Below are positions 1,622 through 22,476 of a stretch of DNA of 26,534 bases, piece after piece (position 1 is the first letter of the stretch; each line of letters begins with the position of its first letter). A program made the translations under genes and the position numbers. The notes below the pieces were generated by a model that ran no database searches, was not told where the DNA came from, and worked only from the letters and a program-made list of their open reading frames with translations. The DNA is from Bacteroidales bacterium. GTDB lineage: Bacteria; Bacteroidota; Bacteroidia; Bacteroidales; UBA7960. The DNA lies in assembly GCA_007124575.1 (NCBI GenBank), contig SLEW01000002.1, forward strand, positions 1 through 26,534, read 5' to 3'.

Positions 1622-3073
1622 CTAGGTGACTTTGATGATGCTCTCAATTTCATCCACGTACCTTTTGAATCGCTTATCTGTATCCAGAAGGTTCCGGACT
1701 GTTTTGCAGGCATGCAATACGGTAGCGTGGTCCTTGTTGCCGCATTTATTGCCAATCACTGCCAGGGAAGATTTGGTGTAAAGCTTGGAAAAGTACATGG
1801 CCAGCTGCCTTACTTGTACGGTTTCCCTCTTGCGGCTCTTGGATTTAAGCTTATCCAGCGGGATGTCAAAATACTGACAAACGGTTTTTTGAATGTAATC
1901 GATGGTGACCTCCTGAGGTGCATGTTTGACAAACTTCTCTATTACCTGGGAAGCAAGCTTAAGATTGATGTCTTTCTTGTTCATGGATGATTGTGCCAAA
2001 ATAGAAATCAACGCACCCTCCATCTCCCTGACATTGGTGTTGATCTTGCTGCTGATAAGCTCCAGCACTTCCTGGGGCATTTCAACTCCATCGTTGAGTA
2101 TCTTCTTCTGAAGAATAGCCATTCGTGTTTCAAAATCGGGCACCTGCAAATCAGCCGATAGCCCCCACTTAAACCTGGACAGCAGGCGTGGTTCAATACC
2201 ACTCATCTCAACAGGAGGCTGATCGCTGGTGATCACAATCTGTTTGCCGTTTTGATGGAGATAGTTAAAAAGATGAAAAAATACATCCTGCGTTTTAGGT
2301 TTCCCGGCAAGACAATGGATGTCATCCACAACCAAAACATCGATCATGTGGTAAAAATGAACAAAGTCGTTTTGGTTGTTATTGCGTATTGAGTCGATAA
2401 ACTGGTTGGTAAATTGCTCTGCTGTTACATACAATACCGTCTTTTCAGGATAGTGGGTTTTTACCTCGATGCCAATGGCATGCGCCAGGTGTGTCTTTCC
2501 AAGACCATTGCCACTATATAAGAGTAATGGATTGAATGAGGTTTTCCCCGGGTTTTGCCCGACAGCCAGTCCGGCACTTCTGGCCAGCCGGTTACAGTCA
2601 CCCTGGATGAAATTGTCAAAGTTGTAAGAGTCAATTAGCTGCGGATGAATGTTAAGTTTCTTAAGCCCGGGAATGACAAATGGATTGGGAACCGTCTTGG
2701 ACTCCACAGAATCCTTGTTCAATTCAATGGGAATATTGATGGGCGGGTTCTTAAGAGCTTTCTTGTTCAGTGTGGGCGCATGAACAGTGAAGGGCTGGTT
2801 GTGCTGCCTGGATAAGGTATTGTCCATGATGATGCTGTATTCCAATCTGCCTTCCGGCCCCAATTCCTTTTTAATGGTCTTTTTGAGCAAATCAATATAG
2901 TGTTCCTCCAGCCATTCATAAAAAAACTGACTGGGAACCTGAAGAGTAAGAACATTTTCTTTCAGACGAACCGGCTTGATGGGCGCAAACCATGTTTTAA
3001 ACGCACTTGGACTGATGTTGTCCTTGATGACAGTTAAACATTGCGACCATACCTTTTCGTAAATCTGATCCAT
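1622..3073 (-). CDS. dnaA: Chromosomal replication initiator DnaA
   Basis: Domain I WxxCLxxI...FKTWF...VPSQFFYEW, Walker A SGNGLGKTH, Walker B VVDDI, RLLSRF, NVREMEGAL, and domain IV RQLAMY...DHATVLHA. Start moved from the ORF-track position to ATG 3073 (MDQIYEKVW, 483 aa). Confidence 0.97.
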   Translation of the reverse strand: MDQIYEKVWSQCLTVIKDNISPSAFKTWFAPIKPVRLKENVLTLQVPSQFFYEWLEEHYIDLLKKTIKKELGPEGRLEYSIIMDNTLSRQHNQPFTVHAPTLNKKALKNPPINIPIELNKDSVESKTVPNPFVIPGLKKLNIHPQLIDSYNFDNFIQGDCNRLARSAGLAVGQNPGKTSFNPLLLYSGNGLGKTHLAHAIGIEVKTHYPEKTVLYVTAEQFTNQFIDSIRNNNQNDFVHFYHMIDVLVVDDIHCLAGKPKTQDVFFHLFNYLHQNGKQIVITSDQPPVEMSGIEPRLLSRFKWGLSADLQVPDFETRMAILQKKILNDGVEMPQEVLELISSKINTNVREMEGALISILAQSSMNKKDINLKLASQVIEKFVKHAPQEVTIDYIQKTVCQYFDIPLDKLKSKSRKRETVQVRQLAMYFSKLYTKSSLAVIGNKCGNKDHATVLHACKTVRNLLDTDKRFKRYVDEIESIIKVT

Positions 3074-3161
3074 TCGTTGTTTTGGTTTTGGTGGTATTCG
3101 TAAGCAAAAATCCTCGACTTTGAATATCAAGGGTTAAGAAATGGAGCTTGAGCGTGTTTGG

Positions 3162-5036: not shown

Positions 5037-5657
5037 TCAGCGTGTACGCAAAAATTTTATGGTAACATCCCTGAGTAAATTAATTTGTTCCACCACCCTG
5101 TCTGCTTCTTTTTGTCTTACGGAAAAATCAATGCGGCACGACATGCCAAAGTCATGTGCTGATTGTGGCAGATCAAACTCTTTCATGATGCGCATTACAT
5201 CGTTCATTGCAGGATATTCAAAGTACACACTGTAATAATCCCGTATGGTTTTGGTTACTATCTTATTGTTTTCAATAGCTTCCCTGGCGGCACCCTTGTA
5301 AGCATTGATCAGGCCCCTCACGCCCAGTTTGGTACCACCAAAATACCTGATTACCACAATGAGTGCATGGCATAATTCATATGACCGGAGTTGTCCCCAG
5401 ATGGGTTTTCCTGCTGTTCCGGAAGGCTCTCCGTCATCATTGAACTTATGTTGTTCCTGGTTATAGCCCAACACCCAGGCATAACAGTGGTGACGGGCAT
5501 CATGATAGGATTTTTTGACTTCATCAAGTATCTCTTTGATCTGATCTTCATCCTGCACAGGGAACGCCAGGGCAATAAATTTGCTGCCTTTATCCTTAAA
5601 TAAACCCGTGGATTTTTTGGTTATTGTTTTGTACGTGTCTGATTGATTATTTCCCAT
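5037..5657 (-). CDS. yigZ: YigZ/IMPACT family protein
   Basis: KGSKFIA, ARHHCYAW, DDGEPSGTAGKP, VIRYFGGTKLGVRGLINAY. Start moved to ATG 5657, 4 bp after the ribD stop. Confidence 0.92.
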   Translation of the reverse strand: MGNNQSDTYKTITKKSTGLFKDKGSKFIALAFPVQDEDQIKEILDEVKKSYHDARHHCYAWVLGYNQEQHKFNDDGEPSGTAGKPIWGQLRSYELCHALIVVIRYFGGTKLGVRGLINAYKGAAREAIENNKIVTKTIRDYYSVYFEYPAMNDVMRIMKEFDLPQSAHDFGMSCRIDFSVRQKEADRVVEQINLLRDVTIKFLRTR

Positions 5658-5661
5658 ACTT

Positions 5662-6717
5662 TTATGCTGCACCGGGATTTGTAAAACTATAGAAACACTC
5701 ATTTCCAATGATAGTATATGACATGTTGCCAGGCTCATACAATACGGGTGCAGGCACCCCTTTGCCAAAAAAATGTGCCCCTGTAAAGATTCTGGCTTCA
5801 TCCCACAGGTTCTTATCTATGAGGCTTTGGAGAAGATGGCGGCCACCTTCAACGATCATCGACTGGTGATTTCCACGGTAGAGCCTGGCCATCAGCTGAT
5901 CAAGCAATAAATCGTCGAACAGGATCTTCCAGTATTGTGTGCTGCCAGCGGTTTTCTCAATCTTTTCGTTGACAATGATGGTTGGCTGGCTGTTGTCCAG
6001 CAAGTTGAGATTCGCCGGGAGTGCGAGCTCCTGGTCAAGCACAATACGCAACGGATTTTCACCATGCCAGTCGCGAACATTCAGATGGGGGTTGTCTTTC
6101 ATCGCAGTCTGGGTGCCTACCATGATAACCGGCTCCTGCGTGCGCCATTTGTGCACCAGCATGCGCAACTTTTCGCTGGTGATCCATGTTGGCCTCTTCA
6201 CTGCGCCGGGCACCCGTTCAGCATCAATAAAACCATCAGCCGTTTGTGCCCATTTAAGGATAATGTAGGGTCGCTTCTTTTCGTGAAAGGTAAAAAATCG
6301 CTTATTGAGGTCCCTGCATGCATCCTTCATCACGCCTACCACCACTTCACAGCCACGGGATCTCAAACGCGCAATACCCTTACCCGCTACCGCATCGAAA
6401 GGATCTGCTGTACCAATAACTACCCTGGGAATCTTATTCTCCAGGATCAGATCCGTACAGGGGGGTGTCTTACCATGATGACAGCAGGGTTCCAGGCTAA
6501 CATATAAAGTGGATTCCCGCAACCTCCATATATCTTTCACTGACTGTATTGCGTGTACCTCAGCGTGTGCTTCCCCGTAACGGTGGTGGTAACCTTCGCC
6601 CACAATCCTTTTGTTGTGTACTACTACCGCACCCACCATAGGGTTAGGCGACACTTTGCCTAATCCCCCGCGGGCCAGATCCACGCATCGCTGCATGTAT
6701 AACTCATCTATACTCAT
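5662..6717 (-). CDS. ribD: Bifunctional diaminohydroxyphosphoribosylaminopyrimidine deaminase / reductase RibD
   Basis: SPNPMVGAV, HAE, Zn motif LEPCCHHGKTPPC, LKWAQTADG, GTQTAMKDNP, VEGG. Confidence 0.96.
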   Translation of the reverse strand: MSIDELYMQRCVDLARGGLGKVSPNPMVGAVVVHNKRIVGEGYHHRYGEAHAEVHAIQSVKDIWRLRESTLYVSLEPCCHHGKTPPCTDLILENKIPRVVIGTADPFDAVAGKGIARLRSRGCEVVVGVMKDACRDLNKRFFTFHEKKRPYIILKWAQTADGFIDAERVPGAVKRPTWITSEKLRMLVHKWRTQEPVIMVGTQTAMKDNPHLNVRDWHGENPLRIVLDQELALPANLNLLDNSQPTIIVNEKIEKTAGSTQYWKILFDDLLLDQLMARLYRGNHQSMIVEGGRHLLQSLIDKNLWDEARIFTGAHFFGKGVPAPVLYEPGNMSYTIIGNECFYSFTNPGAA

Positions 6718-6763
6718 GTGTCACACCTGTTTTGCAATTAAATAAAAACCACGAATGCCAATC

Positions 6764-7948
6764 CTAAATATACTTCAAACTAACCTCTTTGAGAAATTTC
6801 TCTTCCAGCATTCGTGCGATTTTTTTCATCACCGACCGTCTGATCTCCAGTTCCACTGGCAGGTTGGGGTCCTGATGTGCCACATTGACGGCCGTTCCTG
6901 CCACAAGATGTATGGCATCACTTTCCAGGATCTGCTTTACGATAAGGTCTGCCGGGCCCTTTCCCAGCTCTGTACGGGGGCTGTATTTATCAAGGATTTC
7001 GGCAGTTTTGCTAAGGGTAAGAATGCCTTCGGTTACCAGATCCACCCCGGGCATGAAAGAAACAGGCGGAAGGTCGGGATCATCAAGTTCGAGGGTGTCT
7101 TCAATGGGAATATTCAGCTCACGGCTCACGATATCTGCGGTTGTGCCACCACTAAGGATTTTATTTCCTTTAAAGTTTTTCACCAGTTCAGCAAGTTCCT
7201 TATCCTTTTTCTTCTCAAAGGGTGGGCCACTGCAAAGAAGAAGATGTCGGGGTTCACGAAAATAGATAACAGCAGCACTTGTATCATCCTTGGCCTGGTA
7301 GCCATCGTTGGAATGCGCTTTGTTCACCACCAATGCAGCCAGCTTTCCGGCAGCAATGCCGGGCTTGTCTTTTACCAGAGACAGAACATGTTCGCGCACG
7401 TTCTCATATCCCCAGCCAAGAAGGTATTTCCCCTTGCCAAGCCCTGACTGGGTGATGCCATCTGTCATCAAAAGGATACGATCCTCTTTTTGTGCTTTGA
7501 ACGTGCATGCCCTCAGCTCCTTTTGCGATTTGTCATCGGCTTCAAGCGTAATATACTGCCATTCAGGATCTAAAACATCTTCTTTGCGCAATACCAGGGC
7601 ATCGGGATTATCGTAGTTCAGAATGGTACACTGGCCCTCCTTGTCAATGTCCACAATGGTAAAGGTCGCATAACTGATCCTTCTTTCACTGCAAACCGGA
7701 AGGGTGTTCATGATGATGTCGGCGATCTTGTGGGCATCCTTATGTTCTTTGGTGAAATTCAGTGCCATGGTGGCAGTAAGCGTGGCAAGCAAATTCGCTT
7801 TCACACCGTGTCCCATGCCATCGGAAAGCACTACCACCGTCCGGCCTTCCTCCCTGACCTTCTCCGATAAAAACATATCTCCGCATATACGCTCTCCCAG
7901 ATGATTGCGCTGCGATGACCCCACTTCTATATAAAAACTATCTTCCAT
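6764..7948 (-). CDS. SpoIIE/PP2C-family Ser/Thr phosphatase with an extra C-terminal domain, HfsC-like
   Basis: PP2C metal-binding motifs CGD, LSDGMGHG, MTDG and DDTS are all present, followed by a ~165-aa domain (GGTTA, VDLVTEGILTL). It lies 23 bp downstream of a PAS-containing hydrogenase-like gene, as in hfsABC clusters. Confidence 0.88.
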   Translation of the reverse strand: MEDSFYIEVGSSQRNHLGERICGDMFLSEKVREEGRTVVVLSDGMGHGVKANLLATLTATMALNFTKEHKDAHKIADIIMNTLPVCSERRISYATFTIVDIDKEGQCTILNYDNPDALVLRKEDVLDPEWQYITLEADDKSQKELRACTFKAQKEDRILLMTDGITQSGLGKGKYLLGWGYENVREHVLSLVKDKPGIAAGKLAALVVNKAHSNDGYQAKDDTSAAVIYFREPRHLLLCSGPPFEKKKDKELAELVKNFKGNKILSGGTTADIVSRELNIPIEDTLELDDPDLPPVSFMPGVDLVTEGILTLSKTAEILDKYSPRTELGKGPADLIVKQILESDAIHLVAGTAVNVAHQDPNLPVELEIRRSVMKKIARMLEEKFLKEVSLKYI

Positions 7949-7971: not shown

Positions 7972-9825
7972 TTAATCCTTGCCTGTTTTCCTGTACGTTT
8001 CAATGATGCTGTTGAGCATCTTTTCCGTGGTGCTGGCGCCTTCACCCAGAGAAAAGGCGATCTTCTGAACCATTTTCAGGTTCTCATCAATGACCTCGCT
8101 AACCCTGTTAATGATCTCTTCCTGCCGAACTTCCGCCACATACATGTCACGGAACACACCCCCCACGATTTTGTTGGGTTTCAGCGAATAAATACTTACG
8201 TTAAGCAGCCTGTCGTCATGCTGAACATCTTTGCCTATGATGTTCTCATCGTTTTCAAGCACGTAGGTAAAAAGATTGTAGAGGTTATAGGGCAGTAATG
8301 TTTTCAAGTCAGCTCCGGCAAGTCCGGGTATCACCTCGTTGATCATTTCGGCATCTTCGCCCAGTACCCGGATGAAACTTTCATTGGATTCAATTACCTT
8401 GAGCTTGTCGTCAACAATCACAGCTGCTGATGGCAGGTTTTTCAGCAGGGCAGAGGTTGTATCCGTACGTTGTTTGAGTTTCTGATTCTCTTCAAGAAGG
8501 GATTTTTCCTTGTCAATGAGGCTTTCCTGCTGTTGTTTTAATTTGTCATTATTGTTTTTAAGCGTCTTGATGTAATCTTGTTTGTTTTTGATCGAATAAT
8601 TAAGGCACATTTCAGGCTTTGAAAGGCCCTGGCTGATGCTGGCTGCGAAATCCTGGCAGCTCCTGAAGCCGCAGGCGTTGCATGCAGCACTCTCTTCCAG
8701 TCGCTTACCCAGGCTTTTAAGTATCTCTTCCAGTTGCTCATTGTTGGGTTGGGGCAAACGCTGATCGTCGCGTTCAAAACCCCGGCCAAGATCTATCTCA
8801 AGATGTTTGGCCATGTCTTTTTCCCACTGCTTTTTGTCAAAATCCCTGAGACGTTTATGAACGTAATCCACCACCATGGTACGTCGCAAATATTTGTTGG
8901 ACTGGTCGGTAGTTCCCGGCCCCATAAGACAGCCCGAGTGATAAAAGATGTTGAAATGTTTTTTCAGTGATTCGGTGTGGTCGTTGAATTCGTCCACGGC
9001 ATCCATCATGTTCATCTTTTCTTCAACGGTGATCACCTTGCCGTCAAGCAAAGAATCATCCACCTTCGACGCTTCCACTATGCCTTTGCTGATAGGATAC
9101 AGTGAACCGTGGTAGCCGATGGGTGCATCAAAGTCTGAATACTCAACCTTGGATTCCTTGATCTTAAATCTGTTGAAAAGGTCGCGCAGCTCTTTAAATG
9201 TCAGCACCCTGTCCACATATCCGTCTCCTTCATGCGCGCGTGCCTCATGTTTGGCCGATAAGCACGGGCCGATGAAAACTACTTTGAGGTCTTTGCCATA
9301 GTTTTTGCGCACGGTTTTGGCCGCCGCAGTCATGGGCGTCACAATAGGGGCAAGGTTATCCGTAAGCTCCGGAGCAAACTTTTCCACATAGGAAACAAGG
9401 CTGGGACAGTTGGCCATCAAATAATACTTGCCCTTGAAATTTGTCAGTAAATCATGGTATTTTCTGGCCACCAGGTCCACGCCAAAGGAAACCTCGTTCA
9501 CATAGTCGAAACCTAGTTTACGGATCATTTCCACAAACTTGCGGTAATCTGTGATATCAGGAAATTCACCGCTAATGGTGGGGTCTACGATGGCAGCTGT
9601 CTTGTTATCTGACTCCAGAAGCTCAACAGTCTCCTCCAGTTCACTAATATGACTTACTGCATCGGCAGCACAAACATAGAGGCAGCTTCCGCATCCGATA
9701 CACCGGCTGTGATTGACAACCGGCATGCCATCTTTGCTTCGGGTTGTTATGGCCTTTACCGGACAGGCCCTGATGCATGCATAAGATTGCGTACATCGCT
9801 TATGGTCTATTTCTATGATTTTCAT
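7972..9825 (-). CDS. Group C (sensory) [FeFe]-hydrogenase-like protein with FeS domain, coiled coil and PAS-like domain, HfsB/HydS-like; H-cluster motifs degenerate
   Basis: N-terminal ferredoxin-like motifs (CTQSYACIRACP, CIGCGSCLYVC). H-domain with P1 MANCP, P2 GPCLSAKHE and P3 FYHSGCLMGPG. FeS domain CNACGFRSC...EMC, coiled coil, PAS-like LPSAAVIVD...IESNESF, and C-terminal helix VQKIAFSLGEGA. Confidence 0.88.
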   Translation of the reverse strand: MKIIEIDHKRCTQSYACIRACPVKAITTRSKDGMPVVNHSRCIGCGSCLYVCAADAVSHISELEETVELLESDNKTAAIVDPTISGEFPDITDYRKFVEMIRKLGFDYVNEVSFGVDLVARKYHDLLTNFKGKYYLMANCPSLVSYVEKFAPELTDNLAPIVTPMTAAAKTVRKNYGKDLKVVFIGPCLSAKHEARAHEGDGYVDRVLTFKELRDLFNRFKIKESKVEYSDFDAPIGYHGSLYPISKGIVEASKVDDSLLDGKVITVEEKMNMMDAVDEFNDHTESLKKHFNIFYHSGCLMGPGTTDQSNKYLRRTMVVDYVHKRLRDFDKKQWEKDMAKHLEIDLGRGFERDDQRLPQPNNEQLEEILKSLGKRLEESAACNACGFRSCQDFAASISQGLSKPEMCLNYSIKNKQDYIKTLKNNNDKLKQQQESLIDKEKSLLEENQKLKQRTDTTSALLKNLPSAAVIVDDKLKVIESNESFIRVLGEDAEMINEVIPGLAGADLKTLLPYNLYNLFTYVLENDENIIGKDVQHDDRLLNVSIYSLKPNKIVGGVFRDMYVAEVRQEEIINRVSEVIDENLKMVQKIAFSLGEGASTTEKMLNSIIETYRKTGKD

Positions 9826-9933: not shown

Positions 9934-10188
9934 TTAAGAACCGGAAAAATACGCGTCCAGAAGGTCTGTGACCTTATCAGGCGTTACCTGCGTATGTTTC
10001 TGATAATTAAGTAAGAGCACGGGGCCCTTTTCGCACTCCCCAAAACAATGTGAGCCCCTGAAAAGAACTATATCTTCAAGCCCACGCTCTTTCAGGTATT
10101 TTTTTATAATTCCGAGGGCCTGCTTGTTACCCCTGGAAAAGCAACTGCTTCCCATGCAAATGACGATCTCTGAATGCTCTTGTCCCAT
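9934..10188 (-). CDS. Thioredoxin-like [2Fe-2S] ferredoxin (NuoE C-terminal type), HfsA-like
   Basis: CMGSSC (Cx4C) and HCFGEC (Cx3C). Start moved to ATG 10188 (MGQEHSE, 84 aa). Confidence 0.85.
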   Translation of the reverse strand: MGQEHSEIVICMGSSCFSRGNKQALGIIKKYLKERGLEDIVLFRGSHCFGECEKGPVLLLNYQKHTQVTPDKVTDLLDAYFSGS

Positions 10189-10215
10189 AAAAGATATTAT
10201 TCCGATCAATAAATA

Positions 10216-10223
10216 CAAAATTA
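10216..10223 (-). promoter_or_regulatory. Putative Bacteroidota -7 promoter box for the hfsABC-like unit
   Basis: The minus strand reads TAATTTTG, matching TAnnTTTG, 27 bp upstream of ATG 10188. No clean -33 TTTG was found. Confidence 0.5.
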
Positions 10224-10243
10224 CGGAAAGCTTTCTGAAAAAC

Positions 10244-10261
10244 CAGTTAATTCCTTCACAT
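10244..10261. promoter_or_regulatory. Weak candidate Rex operator
   Basis: CAGTTAA-TTCC-TTCACAT matches TTGTGAA-N4-TTCACAA at 10/14 positions and overlaps the expected -33 region of the leftward promoter. Confidence 0.3.
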
Positions 10262-10361
10262 CTTATATACAAGAGTTTATTTAAGAATTAATCTAAATAA
10301 CATTAATGCCGCCTTTTTTTCGTTTTATGCCCCTTTGTTATGTCAAAACTATTTTTTTCTT

Positions 10362-10471: not shown

Positions 10472-10945
10472 ATGACAGTTGAGCTGGAACATATTTTTAA
10501 AGTTTATCCCAACAGCAAGCGTGAAGACCTCATTCCCATGCTTCAGGCTATCCAGGATGAGCAGGGTTATCTTACGGAGGAGGTGATCCATGAAGTGGGC
10601 AAGTACTTGGATATCAGTGTGAATAAGATCTATGGGGTAGCCACTTTTTATGATAACTTTCGCTTTGGCCCTGTTGGCAGGTATCATTTTCGCCTTTGTC
10701 ACGGTACCGCATGCCATGTGGCCGGTGCATCAACACTTCAGAAAGAGTTGCAGAAGTTACTGAAGATCAATGCAGGTGAGACCGATAAAAATGGATTATT
10801 CAGCCTTGAGGTTGTTAGTTGCATAGGCGCTTGCGGACTGGCACCTCTGATTGAGGTCAATGAGGAGTATTATACAAATATTACCCTTGAGTCGTTAAAA
10901 GCCCTGGTGGACAAGATCAGGGAAAAAGAAAATGATGTCTTATGA
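10472..10945 (+). CDS. NuoE-like [2Fe-2S] subunit of a multimeric [FeFe]-hydrogenase (HydC/HndA type)
   Basis: LIPMLQAIQ, IYGVATFY, CHGTACH, SCIGACGLAP. ATGA overlap with the next gene. Confidence 0.93.
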   Translation: MTVELEHIFKVYPNSKREDLIPMLQAIQDEQGYLTEEVIHEVGKYLDISVNKIYGVATFYDNFRFGPVGRYHFRLCHGTACHVAGASTLQKELQKLLKINAGETDKNGLFSLEVVSCIGACGLAPLIEVNEEYYTNITLESLKALVDKIREKENDVL

Positions 10946-12891
10946 GCCTGGATGCGAAACTTGAGAATCGTCAGTTTTTGATCAACAAAGTCTTGCTGGA
11001 CCCCAGACGCGATGAAGATGCTGGCGTACGCAAGTCATTGTCATACATATCGGGGGAGCGGGTACACAAAGCCTTGATCTATGTCGGCATGGCAACTTGT
11101 GGCAAGGTAGCCGGAGCAAAAAAAACCTTTCTGGCCATTCAAAACTATCTCCAGGATCATGATATTGATGTTACGCTTGTAGAAGGTGGATGTGTAGGGT
11201 TTTGCAGGGAAGAACCTCTTGTGGATGTGCAGCTTCCCGGAAAGGCGCGCATATCCTTCGGAAATGTTACTTCGGATAAGGTACAGCCCCTCCTGGATGA
11301 TATACTCAACAACAACCTGCCTGAGCAGAAACCCCTGGGCCAGTATCAGAATCCAATTCTTCAGCAATGGGATGGTGTGCCTTTCATGGAGGAGCATGTC
11401 TTTTTTGCCGGACAGCAAAGGTTGCTGATGGACAATTGCGGAATAATTGATCCGGTTTCTATCGAGAGCTACATTGCTAAAGGCGGTTACTGGTCCTTTA
11501 CCGATACCATTTCCACAAAAACACCCGCCCAGGTTTGTGACATTATCGATAAAAGTGGCCTCGCCGGAAGGGGAGGAGGAGGCTACTCTGCAGGAAAAAA
11601 GTGGAACGCTGCCCTAAGCACGGTAAGTGACAACAAATACCTGGTATGCAATGCCGTTGAGAGCGATCCCGGCAGCTATATGAACCGGGCTATCATAGAA
11701 AGCAATCCGCACAGGCTTATCGAAGCTGTGCTCATTGCAGCTTATGCCATAGGCGCAGGTAAAGCCTATATCTTTATCCGGGAAGAATTCAGCCTCGCTA
11801 TCAGCAGATTGGAAAAAGCCATCAGCCAGGCCCGTGAAATGGGCATTATAGGGCATCATATCTTTGAATCCGGGGTAAACATTGATGTAGCTGTAAAAAA
11901 AGGAGCCCGTGCGTTTGTATGTGGTGAAGAGACGGCACTGATCAACAGCTTAGAGGGTAAACGTGCCATGCCCTCTTCAAAGCCTCCTTACCCGGCCGAA
12001 AAGGGCCTTTGGGATCATCCTACCATTGTTAATAATGTGGAAACCCTTTTTAATGTGCCCCTGATCCTGAAAAATGGCAGCGAATGGTTTCATGATACAG
12101 GCACAAAAAGAAGCAAAGGCACCAAAATATTTACACTTTCAGGCAAACTGAAGAACTATGGCACTGTAGAAGTACCTATGGGTATGACTTTTCGCGATAT
12201 CTTAAACGATATTGGAGGAGGCATGGCCGGCGAAAAAGACTTCAAGGCCATCGTGCTCGGAATCAACAGCGGAAGCTATATCACCGAAGAAACGCTTGAC
12301 ATCAAAGTAGACTTCGATGAATTAAAAAGCATAGGTGGCGCTCTGGGAAGCGGAGCCTTTGTAGTGCTTGACTCCGGAGTGTGTATGGTGGACATGGCCA
12401 AATACTTCACAGCCTTTTTTAAAAACGAAAGCTGCGGAAAATGTATTCCATGTCGCGAAGGTACCGCACGGATGCTGGAAGTAATGGAAAACGTCACCCG
12501 AAGACCAAGTGACAATCAGTCCTTCCAGACACTGGAAAGATTTAAGGGCGTGATGCAGCTAAAAAACCTTGCCGGGGTTATCAGCGAAACATCACTTTGC
12601 TCACTGGGGAAATCATCACCCTACGCCATTCTCAACACACTGAAACATTTTAAGAAAGAATTTGATGCACATATCTTTGAAAGGAAATGTGCAGCAAATA
12701 TATGCACCGACCTTAGGATATATCATATCGATGTGGATGCGTGCACAGGATGCACCGCCTGTTTTAAAAAATGCCCGGTCGATGCCATCATAGGCTCGCC
12801 CCGCTATCCACACTTTATCGTACAGGACAAATGCATCGGATGCGGTACCTGCTTTGACGTGTGTAAGTTTAATGCGGTGCTTATCAAATAA
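10942..12891 (+). CDS. NuoF-like flavin/NADH subunit of a multimeric [FeFe]-hydrogenase (HydB/HndC type) with an N-terminal thioredoxin-like domain; divergent FMN/NADH motifs
   Basis: GMATCG...GCVGFC, GLAGRGGGGYSAGKKW, CNAVESDPGSYM, FVCGEETAL, NNVETL, SCGKCIPCREG...SLCSLG, HIFERKCAANIC, and two C-terminal [4Fe-4S] motifs. Confidence 0.92.
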   Translation: MSLDAKLENRQFLINKVLLDPRRDEDAGVRKSLSYISGERVHKALIYVGMATCGKVAGAKKTFLAIQNYLQDHDIDVTLVEGGCVGFCREEPLVDVQLPGKARISFGNVTSDKVQPLLDDILNNNLPEQKPLGQYQNPILQQWDGVPFMEEHVFFAGQQRLLMDNCGIIDPVSIESYIAKGGYWSFTDTISTKTPAQVCDIIDKSGLAGRGGGGYSAGKKWNAALSTVSDNKYLVCNAVESDPGSYMNRAIIESNPHRLIEAVLIAAYAIGAGKAYIFIREEFSLAISRLEKAISQAREMGIIGHHIFESGVNIDVAVKKGARAFVCGEETALINSLEGKRAMPSSKPPYPAEKGLWDHPTIVNNVETLFNVPLILKNGSEWFHDTGTKRSKGTKIFTLSGKLKNYGTVEVPMGMTFRDILNDIGGGMAGEKDFKAIVLGINSGSYITEETLDIKVDFDELKSIGGALGSGAFVVLDSGVCMVDMAKYFTAFFKNESCGKCIPCREGTARMLEVMENVTRRPSDNQSFQTLERFKGVMQLKNLAGVISETSLCSLGKSSPYAILNTLKHFKKEFDAHIFERKCAANICTDLRIYHIDVDACTGCTACFKKCPVDAIIGSPRYPHFIVQDKCIGCGTCFDVCKFNAVLIK

Positions 12892-12904
12892 CCAGAGCTA
12901 AGCC

Positions 12905-14602
12905 ATGGAATGCAAGATAGAAGTTAACCATAAAACTTTAAAAGTACAGGAGGGTGAAAGCCTGTTGTCTGCTTTGCGTCAGCACGGATTTAAAATACCC
13001 ACCATGTGCCACATGAATCGTTTCTCTCCTACTGGTGCATGTCGGCTGTGTGTGGTGGAAGTGGAGGGTAAAAGTGACCTGATAACCTCTTGTTCCTTCC
13101 CTGTAGAGGCTGGCATGAAGGTACAAACAAACTCACAGCGCGTTATCAAAGCCAGGAAGTCATTGGTGGAATTGCTGCTGTCTGACCACCCGGATGATTG
13201 TCTTTATTGCCAGCGTAACGGCCATTGTGAGTTGCAATGGCTTGCAGCGGAAATGAACGTAAAAGAACGAAAGTATTTCGCAGGAAAACAAAAAGATAAC
13301 CCCGACTATTCCAGTACGTCAGTAGCAAGAGACCCTGCCAAATGTGTACTCTGCAGCAGGTGTGTTCGTATATGTGAAGAGGTGCAGCGTGTTACCGCCA
13401 TCGATTTCATTTCGCGGGGAACAAGAACAAAAGTCAACAGCGCCTTTCATAAAGGGTTGAATGTCTCTTCATGCATCCATTGCGGTCAATGCATCCAGGT
13501 TTGTCCTACCGCTGCGCTGACAGACATTTCACATCTTGAAAAAGTAAATGCCGCACTGGGCAATAAGAAAAAACAGGTGATGTTTGTTATCAGTCCTGCG
13601 GCAATAGTCAGCGTCACAGAACTTATACAATCCAAATCAAAAAACAAAGTCAGGGCCAGGCTGACTGCTGCCCTGAAAAGACTCGGGGCCAGCAAGGTGT
13701 TTGATAGCGGTACAGCTGCAGACATTCATGTGATGGAAGAGGCACGGCAACTTGCAGAATTAATCAGAAGCAAAGACAAAAAAGATCTGCCTCTTATTTC
13801 ATCCTGTTGCCCCTCATGGATACGTTATGCCGAAGGTTTCAAGCCACAGCTAACCCAGCACATAGCAAAAGTAAAATCGCCCGGACACATCGCAGGCAGC
13901 CTTATAAAGCTCAATTATGCCCGTGAGCATGACGTAGCCATGGAAGACATCTATACAGTATCAGTAACACCATGCGTTGCCAAAAAATATGAAGCAAGCT
14001 GGGAGGAAAATACACATAAGGGGGTATCGGAAGTAGATGCAGTGCTGACCGTTCGCGAATTATTCCTCCTGTTGCGCAGCTTTGGGCTCAACCTGGAACA
14101 GATTGAAGAGGAAGAGATGGATGCGCCTTATAACCATTCATCAGCAGCTGCCATAAAACTTGGCTATTCGGGTGGGAAAGCTGAATCGGTGGCACAGGAA
14201 TTGTTTAACATAATGGGCGGAAGCAAGAAAGAAGCCTTCCGGTTCATGCAGCCTAAAAGTATTACCAGCAAGAGAGAAACAAAGGTCAAAATAGGAAAAA
14301 CGCAGGTAGGCTTTGCCTGGGTAAGCAGCATTGCCGAGGCGGAAGACTACCTTAATGAACTTGGGGAGTCAAAGCGGGATGATATCCATTACATTGAGGT
14401 AATGGCATGCCTCGGGGGTTGTGCCGGAGGAGGTGGTCAGCCTATCAGCCGGGGTTTTGAACAGCCAAAGGCAAGAAAAAAGATCTCCGTCGAAATGGAG
14501 AAAAAGGCAGCATGGCAAAAAGCCTCCGGGAACACCATGGCGGCCGACCTGTTTGAACGTTTTTCTTTCAGACAAAATGAAATCTGGGAAGACCCATTTT
14601 GA
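12905..14602 (+). CDS. [FeFe]-hydrogenase catalytic-type subunit (HydA/HndD type, group A3 architecture), divergent
   Basis: 2Fe-2S (PTMCH, CRLC, TSC), His-ligated cluster HPDDCLYCQRNGHC, and 2x[4Fe-4S]. P1 ISSCCPSW, P2 TPCVAKKYE, P3 EVMACLGGCAGGGGQP. The C-terminal LLHTxY motif is absent. Confidence 0.9.
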   Translation: MECKIEVNHKTLKVQEGESLLSALRQHGFKIPTMCHMNRFSPTGACRLCVVEVEGKSDLITSCSFPVEAGMKVQTNSQRVIKARKSLVELLLSDHPDDCLYCQRNGHCELQWLAAEMNVKERKYFAGKQKDNPDYSSTSVARDPAKCVLCSRCVRICEEVQRVTAIDFISRGTRTKVNSAFHKGLNVSSCIHCGQCIQVCPTAALTDISHLEKVNAALGNKKKQVMFVISPAAIVSVTELIQSKSKNKVRARLTAALKRLGASKVFDSGTAADIHVMEEARQLAELIRSKDKKDLPLISSCCPSWIRYAEGFKPQLTQHIAKVKSPGHIAGSLIKLNYAREHDVAMEDIYTVSVTPCVAKKYEASWEENTHKGVSEVDAVLTVRELFLLLRSFGLNLEQIEEEEMDAPYNHSSAAAIKLGYSGGKAESVAQELFNIMGGSKKEAFRFMQPKSITSKRETKVKIGKTQVGFAWVSSIAEAEDYLNELGESKRDDIHYIEVMACLGGCAGGGGQPISRGFEQPKARKKISVEMEKKAAWQKASGNTMAADLFERFSFRQNEIWEDPF

Positions 14603-14622
14603 AAGACAAGGAATTTTACATT

Positions 14623-16674
14623 ATGACAGAAGACAAGACCAGAGAGATTATATATACGGTTAAAGACCGCTGCAAGGTATGCTATACATGTGTCAGGGAA
14701 TGCCCTGCCAAGGCCATAAAAATCATCAACGGCCAGGCAGAGATCATTTCCAGCAGATGTATCGCTTGCGGGAATTGCATACGGGTGTGCAGCCGCGACG
14801 CCAAGATGTTTGTCTTTTCAATAGACAAGGTGAAGACCTTGCTGCACAGCCATCAAAAAGTGGCTGCCATCGTTGCACCTTCCATTGCCGGTGAGTTTAC
14901 TGACATTAAAGACTACCGTCACTTTGTGGGAATGATAAAGGCCCTTGGTTTCGACTATGTGAACGAAGTGGCTTTTGGTGCTGAACTTATCGCAAGCAAA
15001 TACAAAGAACTCCTGGAATCCAAACCCGGAAGACCCCTCATATCTACAAGCTGCCCCTCTATCGTAAGCTATGTGGAAAAACACCACCCTCAGATTATTG
15101 ATTCCCTGGTTCCCGTGGTATCGCCAATGGTAGCCACAGCAAAAGTACTGAAGGAAAAACATGGCGACGATCTGCGTATTGTGTTTATAGGGCCCTGTAT
15201 TGCCAAAAAAGTGGAAGCTGAAGATAAGCAGTTTCAGGGTCTTATTGATGAGGTCATTTCTTTCCTGGAGTTGCGCAGAATGTTTGAAGAGAAAAAGCTT
15301 ACCGAAGAGAATGCTGAACCCCATGAATTTGACCCACCAGTGGCCGGTAAGGGTGCTATATTCCCTATAAGCGGGGGCATGTTGCAAACTGTAGACCTGG
15401 AAGAAGATTTTGTCAAAGGTGACATTATTGTGGCCGAAGGCCGGCACGACATCATCGAAGTACTGCGTGAATTTGAAGAAGGCTACCTGGAAGCCAAAAT
15501 GTTTGACCTCCTGCTTTGTAATGGCTGCATCAACGGCCCGGGTATGAGCCATAACCGGCAGTTCTTTTATAAAAGAAAGAACATATCCAACTTTGCAAAA
15601 AGAAGAAAAGATCTCATAGATCAGGATATGTGGCAGAAAGACCTGGAAACCTATCTGCAGCTAGAAATGAACAGAACATTTCAAGCCGATGATCAGCGAT
15701 TTACCGATCCACCTAATGAAGAAGAAATCCGTGAGGTGTTAAAACGTTTTGGGAAAAAAGAGCCAGAAGATGAGTTGAATTGCGGGGCATGTGGTTATGA
15801 TACCTGTTATGAACATGCTGTAGCCATCCTGCAAGGGTTAGCAGAATCAGAAATGTGCCTGCCTTATACCATAGACAAGCTGCATGAATATATCACGGAG
15901 CTGGATAAATCGAACCAAAAGCTGGCCTCTACGCAGGATGCTCTCAAGCAAAGCGAAAAGCTTGCATCCATGGGGCAACTGGCCGCAGGCATCGCACATG
16001 AAGTAAATAATCCGCTGGGGGTGGTGATCATGTATAGCCATATCCTGCTGGATGAGATGGATCCTTCATCACCGCTGTATCGCGACCTGAAAATGATCGT
16101 AGAGCAAGCCGACAGGTGTAAAAAAATCGTAGGCGGACTGCTCAACTTTGCCCGGAAGAGCAAGGTAAAGATTGATAAAGTAGACGTGAAAAAACTTATT
16201 AATGCCGGCCTGAAAACATTCGTGCTGCCCGAAAACGTGCATCTTGATATACGTATCAATACCCGCAACCCAGGCCTGGAATGTGACCATGACCAGATGG
16301 TGCAGGTCTTTTCCAATTTGTTTAAAAACGCAGTGGATGCCATGCCCGATGGCGGCAAGCTTAGTATCGTGGTAAGCGAAGAAGCGGGAAAAGACGGCCT
16401 GGCGATCAGTATAAGCGACTCTGGCACAGGAATTTCCAAAGAAAACCAGGAGAAAATGTTCGAACCCTTCTTTACGACAAAAGAAACAGGGCAGGGTACA
16501 GGCCTGGGACTTCCTATCATTTACGGCATCATCAAAATGCACAGCGGAAATATTAAAGTTGATTCAAATGACGATCCCGGGAAAGGTGCTACGGGAACCA
16601 CTTTTTACTTAAGCCTGCCCCGTAAGACTCCTGACAAGCATAAAACAACAAGCGAAGAAAAGCAGATTGGTTAA
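14623..16674 (+). CDS. Group C [FeFe]-hydrogenase domain fused to a histidine kinase (HisKA + HATPase_c)
   Basis: 2x[4Fe-4S] (CKVCYTCVRECP, CIACGNCIRVC), APS loop, P1 STSCP, P2 GPCIAKKVE, P3 LLCNGCINGPG, FeS domain CGACGYDTC...EMC, coiled coil. Kinase boxes: H AHEVNNP, N NLFKNAVDAM, DSGTGI, FEPFFTTK, GTGLGL. Start moved to ATG 14623. Confidence 0.93.
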   Translation: MTEDKTREIIYTVKDRCKVCYTCVRECPAKAIKIINGQAEIISSRCIACGNCIRVCSRDAKMFVFSIDKVKTLLHSHQKVAAIVAPSIAGEFTDIKDYRHFVGMIKALGFDYVNEVAFGAELIASKYKELLESKPGRPLISTSCPSIVSYVEKHHPQIIDSLVPVVSPMVATAKVLKEKHGDDLRIVFIGPCIAKKVEAEDKQFQGLIDEVISFLELRRMFEEKKLTEENAEPHEFDPPVAGKGAIFPISGGMLQTVDLEEDFVKGDIIVAEGRHDIIEVLREFEEGYLEAKMFDLLLCNGCINGPGMSHNRQFFYKRKNISNFAKRRKDLIDQDMWQKDLETYLQLEMNRTFQADDQRFTDPPNEEEIREVLKRFGKKEPEDELNCGACGYDTCYEHAVAILQGLAESEMCLPYTIDKLHEYITELDKSNQKLASTQDALKQSEKLASMGQLAAGIAHEVNNPLGVVIMYSHILLDEMDPSSPLYRDLKMIVEQADRCKKIVGGLLNFARKSKVKIDKVDVKKLINAGLKTFVLPENVHLDIRINTRNPGLECDHDQMVQVFSNLFKNAVDAMPDGGKLSIVVSEEAGKDGLAISISDSGTGISKENQEKMFEPFFTTKETGQGTGLGLPIIYGIIKMHSGNIKVDSNDDPGKGATGTTFYLSLPRKTPDKHKTTSEEKQIG

Positions 16675-20770: not shown

Positions 20771-22198
20771 ATGATATATCACCCGCAAACATACCGTATT
20801 CCTGATAAAAGGATGCAGCCCTTCATTGATGCTGATGAGATTTGGGGCTTCATTAACGACGTGAAACCGGATAAGCAGCGTGTGAGGGATGTGATACAAG
20901 CGTCATTGGATAAAAAACGCCTCTCGCTTGAAGAAACAGCTGTATTGATCAATGCTGATGATCCTGATCTGATTGAAGAAATAAAAGAGGGAGCCAGGAC
21001 TCTGAAAGAAAAGGTCTACGGGGAACGCATTGTGTTGTTTGCCCCGCTTTATGTAGGCGACTTATGCACAAACAATTGCCAGTACTGTGGCTTCAGGGCA
21101 TCCAACAAAGAAGTGCAACGCATCACGCTTAATAAACAGGAACTCATTGTTGAAACCAAGGCATTGATTGATCAGGGTCATAAGCGGCTCATTCTTGTTT
21201 ACGGCGAACACCCCAAATATTCGGCTGACTTTATTTCTGAGACAGTAGACATTGTATATGGGGTGAAGCATAAAAACGGGGAGATCCGACGGGTGAACAT
21301 CAACGCAGCACCTTTTGACATTCCCGGATTCCGTAAGATTAAAGAGTCCGGGATCGGTACCTTTCAGATATTCCAGGAAACCTATCACGAGCCCACCTAT
21401 ATGCGTGTGCATCTGGGGGGTATTAAGAGGAATTACGATTGGCGTCTTACATCGTTAGATCGTGCTCAGGAAGCCGGGATCGACGATGTAGGGATAGGAG
21501 CACTGTTTGGTCTTTACGACTGGCGCTTCGAAGTTTTAGGCCTGGTAAGACATGTGAATCATTTTGAGGCCGTGTATAATGTCGGTCCGCATACCATCTC
21601 TTTCCCAAGGATACAGAACGCCATGTCACTCGACATAGACAAAAAGCACCTGGTGACTGATGAAGAATTTGTGCGCCTTGTATCCATCCTGCGTCTCGCC
21701 GTACCTTATACCGGAATGATCCTCACCGCCAGAGAGCCCTCCCACATACGTGATCAGGTGTTGCGTTTCGGTGTATCACAAATCGATGGCGGAACTAACC
21801 TGGAGCTCGGAGGCTACTCCAAAGGCAAAAATGAAGCACAAGACCTGAGTAAGGGCCAGTTTCAGATCAACGACAATCGCTCCCTGAGTGAAATCATGGA
21901 TGAGTTGATAAACAGAGGATACATACCGTCTTTCTGTACCGCCTGCTATCGACTGGGGCGAACAGGAGAGCACTTTATGGAGTTTTCGGTTCCCGGATTT
22001 ATCAAAAGATATTGTACCCCAAATGCCATGCTCACACTGGCAGAATATCTGGAAGACTATGCCTCAGAAGAAACAAAAAAAGCCGGATATAACCTGATTG
22101 ACAACAAAATTAAAGAGCTGGAACAGGAGCAAAAGACAGAAAAGCTTAAAGAAAAAATTGATAAAGTTAAGTCCGGACAACGAGATCTATATTTTTAA
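20771..22198 (+). CDS. hydG: [FeFe]-hydrogenase H-cluster radical SAM maturase HydG
   Basis: FAPLYVGDLCTNNCQYCGF (Cx3Cx2C), FQETYH, DDVGIGALFG, PHTISFPR, and auxiliary-cluster motif FCTACYR-x-YCTPNA (Cx2Cx22C). Confidence 0.96.
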   Translation: MIYHPQTYRIPDKRMQPFIDADEIWGFINDVKPDKQRVRDVIQASLDKKRLSLEETAVLINADDPDLIEEIKEGARTLKEKVYGERIVLFAPLYVGDLCTNNCQYCGFRASNKEVQRITLNKQELIVETKALIDQGHKRLILVYGEHPKYSADFISETVDIVYGVKHKNGEIRRVNINAAPFDIPGFRKIKESGIGTFQIFQETYHEPTYMRVHLGGIKRNYDWRLTSLDRAQEAGIDDVGIGALFGLYDWRFEVLGLVRHVNHFEAVYNVGPHTISFPRIQNAMSLDIDKKHLVTDEEFVRLVSILRLAVPYTGMILTAREPSHIRDQVLRFGVSQIDGGTNLELGGYSKGKNEAQDLSKGQFQINDNRSLSEIMDELINRGYIPSFCTACYRLGRTGEHFMEFSVPGFIKRYCTPNAMLTLAEYLEDYASEETKKAGYNLIDNKIKELEQEQKTEKLKEKIDKVKSGQRDLYF

Positions 22199-22209
22199 AT
22201 TCAGGAATT

Positions 22210-22476
22210 ATGCAACAGACCATGGTTCTCGGCATTTTGGTGTTTGACCGCATCAAAGAGGCCGGCAAAACACAAGAAGTACTTACCAGGCATGCTGATG
22301 TAATCCGCACAAGACTTGGATTTCATGAACTATCCGATAATATTTGCAGCCGTGTTGGTACAATCCTGCTGATATTGCAGGGAAAACCCGAAAAATGGGA
22401 GAGACTGCGTGAAGAACTCGCAAAGGTCGGCGGTATTGAAATAAAAGAAATGAAGTTCGAGCACATGTTCAAGTAA
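22210..22476 (+). CDS. TM1266-family iron-only hydrogenase system regulator (ACT-like), copy 1
   Basis: LGILV..R...Q.VLT....IRTRLGFH...G.I.L pattern; directly after hydG. Confidence 0.8.
   Translation: MQQTMVLGILVFDRIKEAGKTQEVLTRHADVIRTRLGFHELSDNICSRVGTILLILQGKPEKWERLREELAKVGGIEIKEMKFEHMFK

Follow-up and report, generated by a model that had tools for sequence, protein, structure and literature searches.

Can a sensor derived from an [FeFe] hydrogenase give up its H-cluster and still remain part of a signalling module? This question is raised by gene P0001 of the Bacteroidales contig SLEW01000002.1 (assembly GCA_007124575.1), of which a stretch of 26,534 nucleotides, here called the window, was analysed; all coordinates are those of the window. 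The gene encodes a HydS-like protein of the PAS type with an altered active site, and a preliminary description, made from the sequence alone, had proposed that this protein may be a pseudo-hydrogenase or Fe-S sensor which probably cannot hold a normal H-cluster, giving the replacement of a ligating Cys by His as one of the reasons. The assumption about sensory [FeFe] hydrogenases is that a complete H-cluster serves them to detect H2. It was found that P0001 belongs to a widespread Bacteroidota clade which departs from this pattern in graded steps, with a canonical paralog at the same locus as an internal control, and the comparison suggests that P0001 probably no longer senses H2 in the usual way. 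The reading that we prefer, and for which the chances seem to us evenly balanced, is that of a Nar1-like sensor of redox or Fe-S status having a three-Cys cubane, a weak fourth ligand and no 2Fe subsite. Natural His, Asp or Asn at this ligand, clade-wide loss of Lys358 and a graded series with a paralog as control were not found described in the open-access literature.

The altered H-cluster site of P0001

P0001 is a member of the H-domain superfamily (PF02906 fold) according to both Pfam and Foldseek. Its Pfam matches are an N-terminal 4Fe-4S dicluster, Fe_hyd_lg_C (E 1.4e-37) and a four-Cys FeS domain. The AlphaFold2 (AF2) model, obtained with an alignment of 92 sequences, has a mean predicted local distance difference test score (pLDDT) of 88, and the top 50 Foldseek matches to this model are all [FeFe] hydrogenases (E ~1e-20 across ~430 columns). 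The Fe_hyd_lg_C match spans profile positions 3-230 of 245 and stops at residue 288, ahead of the P3 motif, whereas the same model is matched at full length by P0002, a paralog encoded in the same window and fused to a histidine kinase.

The two proteins share 40% identity over 435 residues (BLASTP, E 4e-121) without gaps at the motifs, and the equivalences with the hydrogenase CpI (A230, C299/C300, C355 and K358) rest on HMMER alignments, free of gaps, to group A enzymes of solved structure. At P3, where P0002 reads LLLCNGC, P0001 has H296 (codon CAC, 8938-8940) at the cubane ligand C499 of CpI. At P2, where P0002 reads GPCIAKK and HMMER pairs 'gpclsakhea' with 'mpctakkfea' of the solved enzymes, Ala191 (9253-9255) occupies the position of K358 and a Lys is kept one residue further on (K192, CpI K359). 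P1 reads A-N-C-P against T-S-C-P in the paralog, and the loop which is A-P-S in P0002 begins here with D81 (codon GAC, 9583-9585; codons checked by script). Asn139 at the Cys299 position and Gly186 at that of Met353 are the absences expected of the sensory group. The substitutions noted in the preliminary description (DPT, ANCP, GPCLSAK and FYHSGC) were thus all confirmed by script and by the ungapped alignments. As regards the residues by which an H-cluster protein is recognised, three of the four cubane Cys are present (C140, C188 and C299) with His296 in place of the fourth, and Lys358 of the P2 consensus MPCxxKxxE is replaced by Ala191.

A search at E <= 1e-20 retrieved 2835 relatives, and the best 120 clusters (64-97% identity), which carry Bacteroidales or Bacteroidota names wherever they are named, were used as orthologs. 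C140, C188, C299, D81, P82 and G298 are invariant in all 120 of them, and 118 have N139. A Lys never stands at position 191: 108 clusters have Ala there, and the others Ser, Val, Thr or Leu. The preliminary description had asked how widespread His is relative to Cys: position 296 is Asp in 43 clusters, His in 42, Asn in 32, Ser in two and Cys in a single one, and the ortholog tree calls for 12 or more switches at this site. Since the codons for His, Asp and Asn (CAY, GAY and AAY) are one base step apart, and given the states observed, the position appears to drift within three polar residues and to stay in that set. His is therefore not a special feature of this protein but one of three interchangeable states, and the idea of a specific adaptation of P0001 was rejected.

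As the source is a metagenome-assembled genome of 324 contigs and 75% completeness, one might suspect that a sequencing or assembly artefact lies behind the His codon or any of the other changes, or that the gene is a decaying pseudogene. This suspicion can be given practically no weight. The frame of 617 amino acids is intact, a protein identical to P0001 is present on 11 public contigs, the same states recur in dozens of the orthologs, the AF2 model is of good quality and conservation outside the pocket is strong. Moreover two bases would have to change to turn CAC into TGC or TGT, in agreement with the earlier statement that a single-base error is unlikely.

The inference drawn from this His against an H-cluster did not hold. 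The engineered CrHydA1 variants C362D and C362S, altered at the residue equivalent to C499, still have the 2Fe subcluster inserted and show H2 turnover or oxidation (PMC5855289), and C362H is reported to take up the 2Fe unit and to oxidise H2 at a higher potential while proton reduction is lost (PMC11023054, PMC11376134). Because these variants mature, the His alone proves nothing, and the argument has to be made from the remainder of the pocket and from the relatives of the protein.

Ligand loss and relaxed constraint in the Bacteroidota clade

The family was defined by an exhaustive search of 50%-identity representatives together with 80 loci from species-representative genomes (the "L" numbers used below), and the clade set comprises these 80 loci and the window. 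Except for L044 (Hyphomicrobiales) and L053 ('metagenome'), the loci, 78 of the 80, are titled Bacteroidota or a lineage within it. The 81 members, of ~620 amino acids and 41-80% identity to P0001, are monophyletic with support of 100/100. None of them has Lys at position 358, and 80 of the 81 have Lys at position 359 (C+4). At the ligand positions C300, C355, C499 and C503 the state is CCCC in 56 members, CCNC in eight, CCDC in four and CCHC in two (P0001 and L001). In L047 (gene at 5307-7133) only the P1 Cys is left (CLKF), and in ten members no ligand remains. These ten proteins and L047 form two groups, one mostly D-L-K-F and the other D-E/N-G-gap. In both, the F-cluster Cys, the C-terminal four-Cys motif and the PAS region are retained. 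Wherever flanking sequence is available, the order of the genes encoding a small [2Fe-2S] protein, the sensor and a PP2C phosphatase beside the hydrogenase genes hydCBA is kept as well. The position of L047 beside fully ligand-free relatives suggests a stepwise loss, and as far as ligand residues tell, the relatives of P0001 show every stage from an intact to a fully lost site.

A careful tree was computed after removal of the motif columns from the alignment. In it, a ten-member clade (98/98), in which Cys499 is absent throughout, unites the window's group of seven with L037 and the pair L031/L038, and the two degenerate groups lie inside a 29-member clade alongside 18 four-Cys proteins. Forcing all proteins without Cys499 into one clade costs 44.7 log-likelihood units and was rejected (approximately unbiased test, p-AU 0.0018). 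Cys499 was lost at least twice on this tree, and parsimony counts four losses. A quick tree which included the motif columns gave five parsimony changes at Cys499 and scored the constrained single clade better (p-AU 0.835); as it failed to reject a single clade, the careful tree was preferred. Read from the clade as a whole, the change of Lys358 to Ala is older than that of Cys499 to His.

The constraint on the 2Fe pocket was compared by the entropy of alignment columns between the 81 clade members and 112 canonical group C representatives; the latter were selected for four Cys and Lys358, so that these columns are fixed by construction and the others are independent. In the clade and in the canonical set, respectively, the entropy was 1.85 and 0.15 at A230 (Ala in 110 of the 112 canonical representatives), 1.59 and 0.15 at S323, 1.19 and 0.15 at E361 and 0.89 and 0.31 at S232, against a median for the H-domain of 1.52 and 2.56. 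Given that the canonical set is far more diverged overall, the positions in contact with the 2Fe unit are precisely those that were freed to vary in the Bacteroidota clade.

K358, P324 and Q325 are listed as contacts of the distal CN ligand, and A230 and P231 lie ~3.8 A from the H-cluster (PMC10147833). In the loop of P0001 that corresponds to A230-P231-S232, which in H-cluster enzymes borders the 2Fe site and gives a hydrogen bond to the proximal CN, the Pro is kept, and the change of Ala to Asp would add a charge at about this distance from the cofactor site. The change of the loop from APS to DPT had been counted against an H-cluster; it is present, but the part that concerns Ser232 is conservative (Thr), and the active enzyme CpIII has Ala at that position (PMC12138974). 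Asp or Glu at position 230 is accompanied by Lys358 in 3 of 61 proteins and Ala230 in 111 of 142, counts which are uncorrected for shared ancestry, and the pairing of Asp230 with a residue other than Lys358 may reflect a recurrent coupled remodelling of the 2Fe cavity. Outside the clade, several kinase-fused or longer group C-like lineages (representatives P0165, P0167, P0192, P0213, P0266 and P0187) have Asp230 together with Arg or His at 358 and keep the four Cys.

Signalling parts, proposed function and known relatives

By architecture and gene context, P0001 belongs with the phosphatase-linked sensors of group C (PMC5037454, PMC8163306). The N-terminal ferredoxin-like domain, in which group C proteins have two four-Cys motifs, is present with 7 of the usual 8 Cys, the first motif being C11-x2-S14-x2-C17-x3-C21 (CxxSxxCxxxC). 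S14 (9784-9786), a change that the preliminary description had not mentioned, stands at the second Cys of this motif, which is Cys in P0002, and among the 116 orthologs covering the position it is Ser in 112 and Thr in four. By analogy with FS4B of CpI, the affected cluster would be the distal F-cluster on the surface side. Over the Bacteroidota clade this position switches about six times between Cys and a non-Cys residue (Ser, Asn or Thr).

The C-terminal motif C382, C385, C390 and C407 is invariant in all alignments made, and its spacing, Cx2Cx4Cx16C, is that of the additional [4Fe-4S] cluster which sensors of groups C and D typically have (PMC8163306). The PAS domain, another mark of group C, is assigned from the full-length AF2 model together with a profile search, the Pfam PAS matches being below threshold. 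The model has the topology beta-beta-helices-beta-beta-beta with a pLDDT of ~78-87, and the profile of the C-terminal region matched PAS domains of Aer2 (E 0.002), DcuS (0.0045), YtvA and CitA in the PDB, the range being 0.002-0.06. Moreover canonical HydS-type representatives (~575 amino acids) have a homologous stretch in their C-terminal part.

In the reading that we prefer, P0001 would be a phosphatase-linked, PAS-type descendant of the group C protein 'HydS' in which the 2Fe subsite is no longer used. The hydrogenase fold, the F-cluster domain (with one ligand Ser), the Cx2Cx4Cx16C cluster and the PAS domain are kept, and the former H-site would carry only a cubane on C140, C188 and C299 with a weak or exchangeable fourth ligand at 296 (His, or Asp or Asn in orthologs). 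The three invariant Cys and the toggling residue at 499 fit a three-Cys cubane which needs only a polar neighbour. In the cavity for the anionic 2Fe unit the Lys that would anchor it is gone (A191), and a carboxylate has been introduced (D81). The Fe-S clusters would form a chain, perhaps fed by the small [2Fe-2S] protein encoded upstream, that may report the redox state or the Fe-S or oxidant status, and the signal would run from the C-terminal cluster through the long helix to the PAS domain. This domain would in turn modulate the adjacent PP2C and, through it, the expression or activity of the divergent hydCBA, and true H2 sensing at the locus would be left to the kinase-fused paralog with its full H-cluster site.

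Several facts weigh against this reading. The CrHydA1 variants with Asp, Ser or His at the same ligand, which still insert the 2Fe unit and oxidise H2, make the His compatible with an H-cluster (PMC5855289, PMC11023054, PMC11376134); the bridging Cys C299 is conserved together with G298, P82 and P164; and HydE, HydF and HydG are encoded in the genome. In addition, the clade members L069, L074 and L061 are without Lys358 yet have four Cys and a canonical TSCCP, including the proton-transfer Cys. They caution that the absence of Lys358 need not put an end to 2Fe binding in every member, and hint that Lys359 or another residue might substitute for it, so that these three at least may bind a 2Fe unit. 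All this would suit a true H2 sensor with a full H-cluster on a cubane of three Cys and one His (or Asp), in which the non-Cys ligand would raise the potential and bias the site to H2 oxidation or binding, a property apt for a sensor, as His reportedly does in CrHydA1 where proton reduction is suppressed (PMC5855289; PMC11023054). The invariance of the bridging Cys and of the Cys at the other ligand positions among the 120 orthologs, and the Lys at C+4 in nearly the whole clade, point in the same direction. We nevertheless consider such a sensor unlikely, if still worth keeping in mind, and the Nar1-like sensor is preferred because Lys358 is absent clade-wide with a carboxylate at 230 beside the anionic cofactor site, because Asn, a poor Fe ligand, stands at 296 in a third of the orthologs, because the residues lining the 2Fe cavity are relaxed, because the gene order is unchanged in close relatives that have lost every ligand or nearly every one, and because a second, fully canonical sensor head is encoded at the same locus. 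The earlier idea of a pseudo-hydrogenase or Fe-S sensor gains its support from these comparisons and not from the change of Cys to His.

The ligand-free sisters also bear on another explanation, namely that the former H-site is metal-free or structural, the sensing being done by the accessory F-clusters, the C-terminal four-Cys cluster or a ligand bound to the PAS domain, and the three Cys being remnants or needed for folding. These sister lineages have preserved both the gene order and the remainder of the protein, which indicates that the module works without a metal at the H-site, and the C-terminal motif is invariant everywhere. For P0001 such a site appears quite improbable, as the invariance of C140, C188 and C299 and the restriction of position 296 to Asp, His and Asn, in spite of its many changes, amount to the purifying selection expected of a metal site and not of remnants.

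If the Nar1-like reading is extended beyond P0001, it becomes more tentative. It is possible, though we would lean against it, that a large HydS-type clade of Bacteroidota gave up H2 chemistry altogether and uses the scaffold as an Fe-S wire, a cubane with an open or exchangeable fourth site (Asp, His or Asn) responding to oxidants, Fe-S status or redox state. Such a protein and the canonical H2 sensor fused to the kinase would make up a two-input controller (H2 and redox) of the bifurcating hydrogenase, and the series of relatives would document how an active site was first turned into part of a signalling protein and later discarded from it. Anoxic sediments, digesters and guts are habitats in which Bacteroidota are a dominant phylum. 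The results call for caution in genome surveys that count every group C match as an H2 sensor. These proteins are moreover the equivalents in nature of the engineered variants C362H and C362D, and lend themselves to work on the tuning of the cubane by a non-Cys ligand. They also offer a natural experiment on the signal from HydS-type modules to PAS domain and phosphatase: should regulation persist in the ligand-free members, H2 at an H-cluster is excluded as the input.

Among described systems, the closest are the group C (M2f) HydS proteins such as TmHydS of Thermotoga maritima and the 'phosphatase-linked' class C3 of HydDB, with which P0001 shares the two-cluster ferredoxin domain, the H-domain, the Cx2Cx4Cx16C motif and the PAS domain (PMC8163306, PMC10055695, PMC5037454). 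The proton-transfer Cys is likewise absent, Gly likewise replaces Met353, and the genes lie beside a group A hydrogenase and a PP2C, the class C3 following from this neighbourhood. P0001 differs from the TmHydS type in the changes Cys499 to His, Lys358 to Ala and Ala230 to Asp, in one F-cluster Cys replaced by Ser and in an extra coiled-coil helix of ~55 residues before the PAS domain, whereas sensory [FeFe] hydrogenases of that type are reported to conserve the four ligating Cys and the residues hydrogen-bonding or binding CN (PMC10055695).

Similar modules are found in Thermoanaerobacterium (hfsABCD) and Ruminococcus albus, where a small upstream protein HfsA, the PAS-hydrogenase HfsB (HydS) and the serine-phosphatase homolog HfsC are encoded in one unit adjacent to catalytic hydrogenases, and deletion of hfsA or hfsB is reported to give regulatory phenotypes (PMC5707799, PMC11837493). 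These are proteins of Firmicutes, likened here by gene order and architecture, and the module of P0001 differs in being divergent from hydCBA and in having a second, kinase-fused head. The natural His, Asp and rare Ser match the states tolerated in CrHydA1 at the same cubane ligand; those variants, whose maturation was carried out in vitro, retain Lys358 as well as the native 2Fe pocket, whereas the natural proteins are without Lys358, have Asp230 and often Asn (PMC5855289; PMC11023054). In the group C1 homologs of Hydrogenedentota the P1-P3 motifs were hardly found and H2 sensing was doubted (PMC11406978). They are a precedent for degenerate group C heads, but belong to another phylum and subgroup and have a HATPase domain, and neither a stepwise series nor a paralog control was described for them.

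The eukaryotic protein Nar1/NARFL has the hydrogenase fold without the 2Fe subsite or H2 chemistry, its Fe-S clusters being kept for another role. It belongs to another lineage, works in cytosolic Fe-S protein assembly, and is not known to have a PAS domain or phosphatase partner or to lack any of the cubane Cys. NsrR (three Cys and Asp) and IscR (three Cys and His) are examples of a recurring design of labile, signal-responsive clusters with one non-Cys ligand, in DNA-binding regulators of unrelated folds.

Gene neighbourhood

The sensor gene, its parts and the genes around it are listed in Table 1.

Table 1. Coordinates of P0001, of its domains and motifs and of neighbouring genes in the window
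Feature	Position	Strand	Basis or remark
PP2C/SpoIIE-type phosphatase P0003	6764..7948	-	Pfam SpoIIE E 6e-18
P0001, HydS-like PAS-type [FeFe]-hydrogenase-derived sensor, 617 aa	7972..9825	-	Open reading frame and translation, Pfam, AF2, Foldseek
C-terminal long helix, residues 564-614, highly conserved (..QxIxxxLGEGAxxTE..)	7984..8136	-	AF2 and alignment columns
PAS-like domain, ~residues 463-563	8137..8439	-	AF2 topology and profile search
Long helix, residues 408-462, bridging Fe-S part and PAS	8440..8604	-	AF2 secondary structure
C-terminal Cx2Cx4Cx16C (C382, C385, C390, C407), extra [4Fe-4S] cluster motif	8605..8682	-	Cys spacing, Pfam FeS E 1e-4
P3 motif F294-Y-H296-S-G-C299	8929..8946	-	His for cubane ligand CpI C499; C299 = bridging Cys CpI C503
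P2 motif G186-P-C188-L-S-A191-K192-H-E194	9244..9270	-	C188 = cubane ligand CpI C355
P1 motif A138-N139-C140-P141	9403..9414	-	Asn at proton-transfer site CpI C299; C140 = cubane ligand CpI C300
D81-P82-T83, replacing the A230-P231-S232 loop that lines the 2Fe cavity	9577..9585	-	Paralog and solved-structure alignment
N-terminal 2x[4Fe-4S] ferredoxin-like domain, residues 4-57	9655..9816	-	Pfam Fer4_10 and related models
Small thioredoxin-like [2Fe-2S] protein, like C-terminal half of NuoE/HydC	9934..10272	-	Pfam 2Fe-2S_thioredx E 3.6e-9
hydC-hydB-hydA (NuoE-like, NuoF-like, group A [FeFe] hydrogenase), divergent	10472..14602	+	Pfam, NCBIfam, gene order
hydB	10942-12891	+	Neighbour in hydCBA
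Paralog P0002, HydS-like head fused to histidine kinase	14599..16674 (also start 14623)	+	APS, SC, GPCIAKK and CNGC complete
HydG maturase	20771..22198	+	NCBIfam rSAM_HydG equivalog, 505.7 bits (cut-off 312)

The PP2C gene starts 23 bp downstream of the sensor gene and is directly downstream of it in ~70 of the 80 loci, and the gene of the small [2Fe-2S] protein is upstream in most. The complete trio is found in ~70 of the 80, mostly divergent from hydCBA, and also where the sensor is ligand-free (L029, L043, L052, L057 and L066). It is from this gene order that the sensor is taken to be linked to the PP2C. The metal-binding Asp motifs of the PP2C are invariant across the orthologs aligned. 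Its residues 225-394 (6764-7270, ~170 amino acids) gave no Pfam match and could be a docking or regulatory domain; in 37 orthologs many residues of this C-terminal domain are invariant (GPP, GxTT, TEG and HQDPNLP). A complex predicted for sensor residues 400-617 and the PP2C, without controls, had a score of 0.02, which speaks neither for nor against their contact.

To judge from its position, hydCBA is the likely regulated target of the sensor module. HydA (12905-14602, plus strand) matched the NCBIfam model FeFe_hydrog_A6-like with E 2.5e-163; with 544 against 765 bits it is below the NCBIfam cut-offs for group A6 and for the clostridial enzymes. The kinase-fused paralogs of other loci are canonical at every motif covered by the match (APS, xC, GPCxAKK and CxxC), also where the PAS-type protein is ligand-free. 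The pattern of conservation argues that the head of the P0002 type is held under strict selection for the H-cluster site and that of the PAS type is not, which gives an internal control within one genome. Most kinase-fused paralogs of Bacteroidota have Asp at the proton-transfer position (SSDCP), and P0002 of the window has Ser (STSCP). Among variants of C299 in CpI, Asp is the one substitution known to retain activity.

On the plus strand the order is hydC, hydB, hydA, the kinase-fused paralog, a receiver, a receiver-kinase, Rex, a RibF-type FAD synthetase, a metallo-beta-lactamase-fold protein, HydG and a TM1266-like regulator. The last, an 'iron-only hydrogenase system regulator, putative' (22210-22476), directly follows HydG and was matched by Pfam at E 6e-5, below cut-off. 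Five hydrogenase-domain genes were found in the genome. HydE is encoded elsewhere in it (343 bits, above cut-off), and HydF is divided between the ends of two contigs (319 and 226 bits; C171:16-684 and C96:2-604), with HydE directly after the piece on C171. The split of HydF looks like an assembly break and not a broken gene, and with all three maturases the genome is able to make the 2Fe subcluster.

The DnaA gene (1622-3130, minus strand) lies ~5 kb from the hydrogenase regulatory locus, and the cumulative GC skew turns near 8-10 kb; the window may therefore be close to the replication origin.

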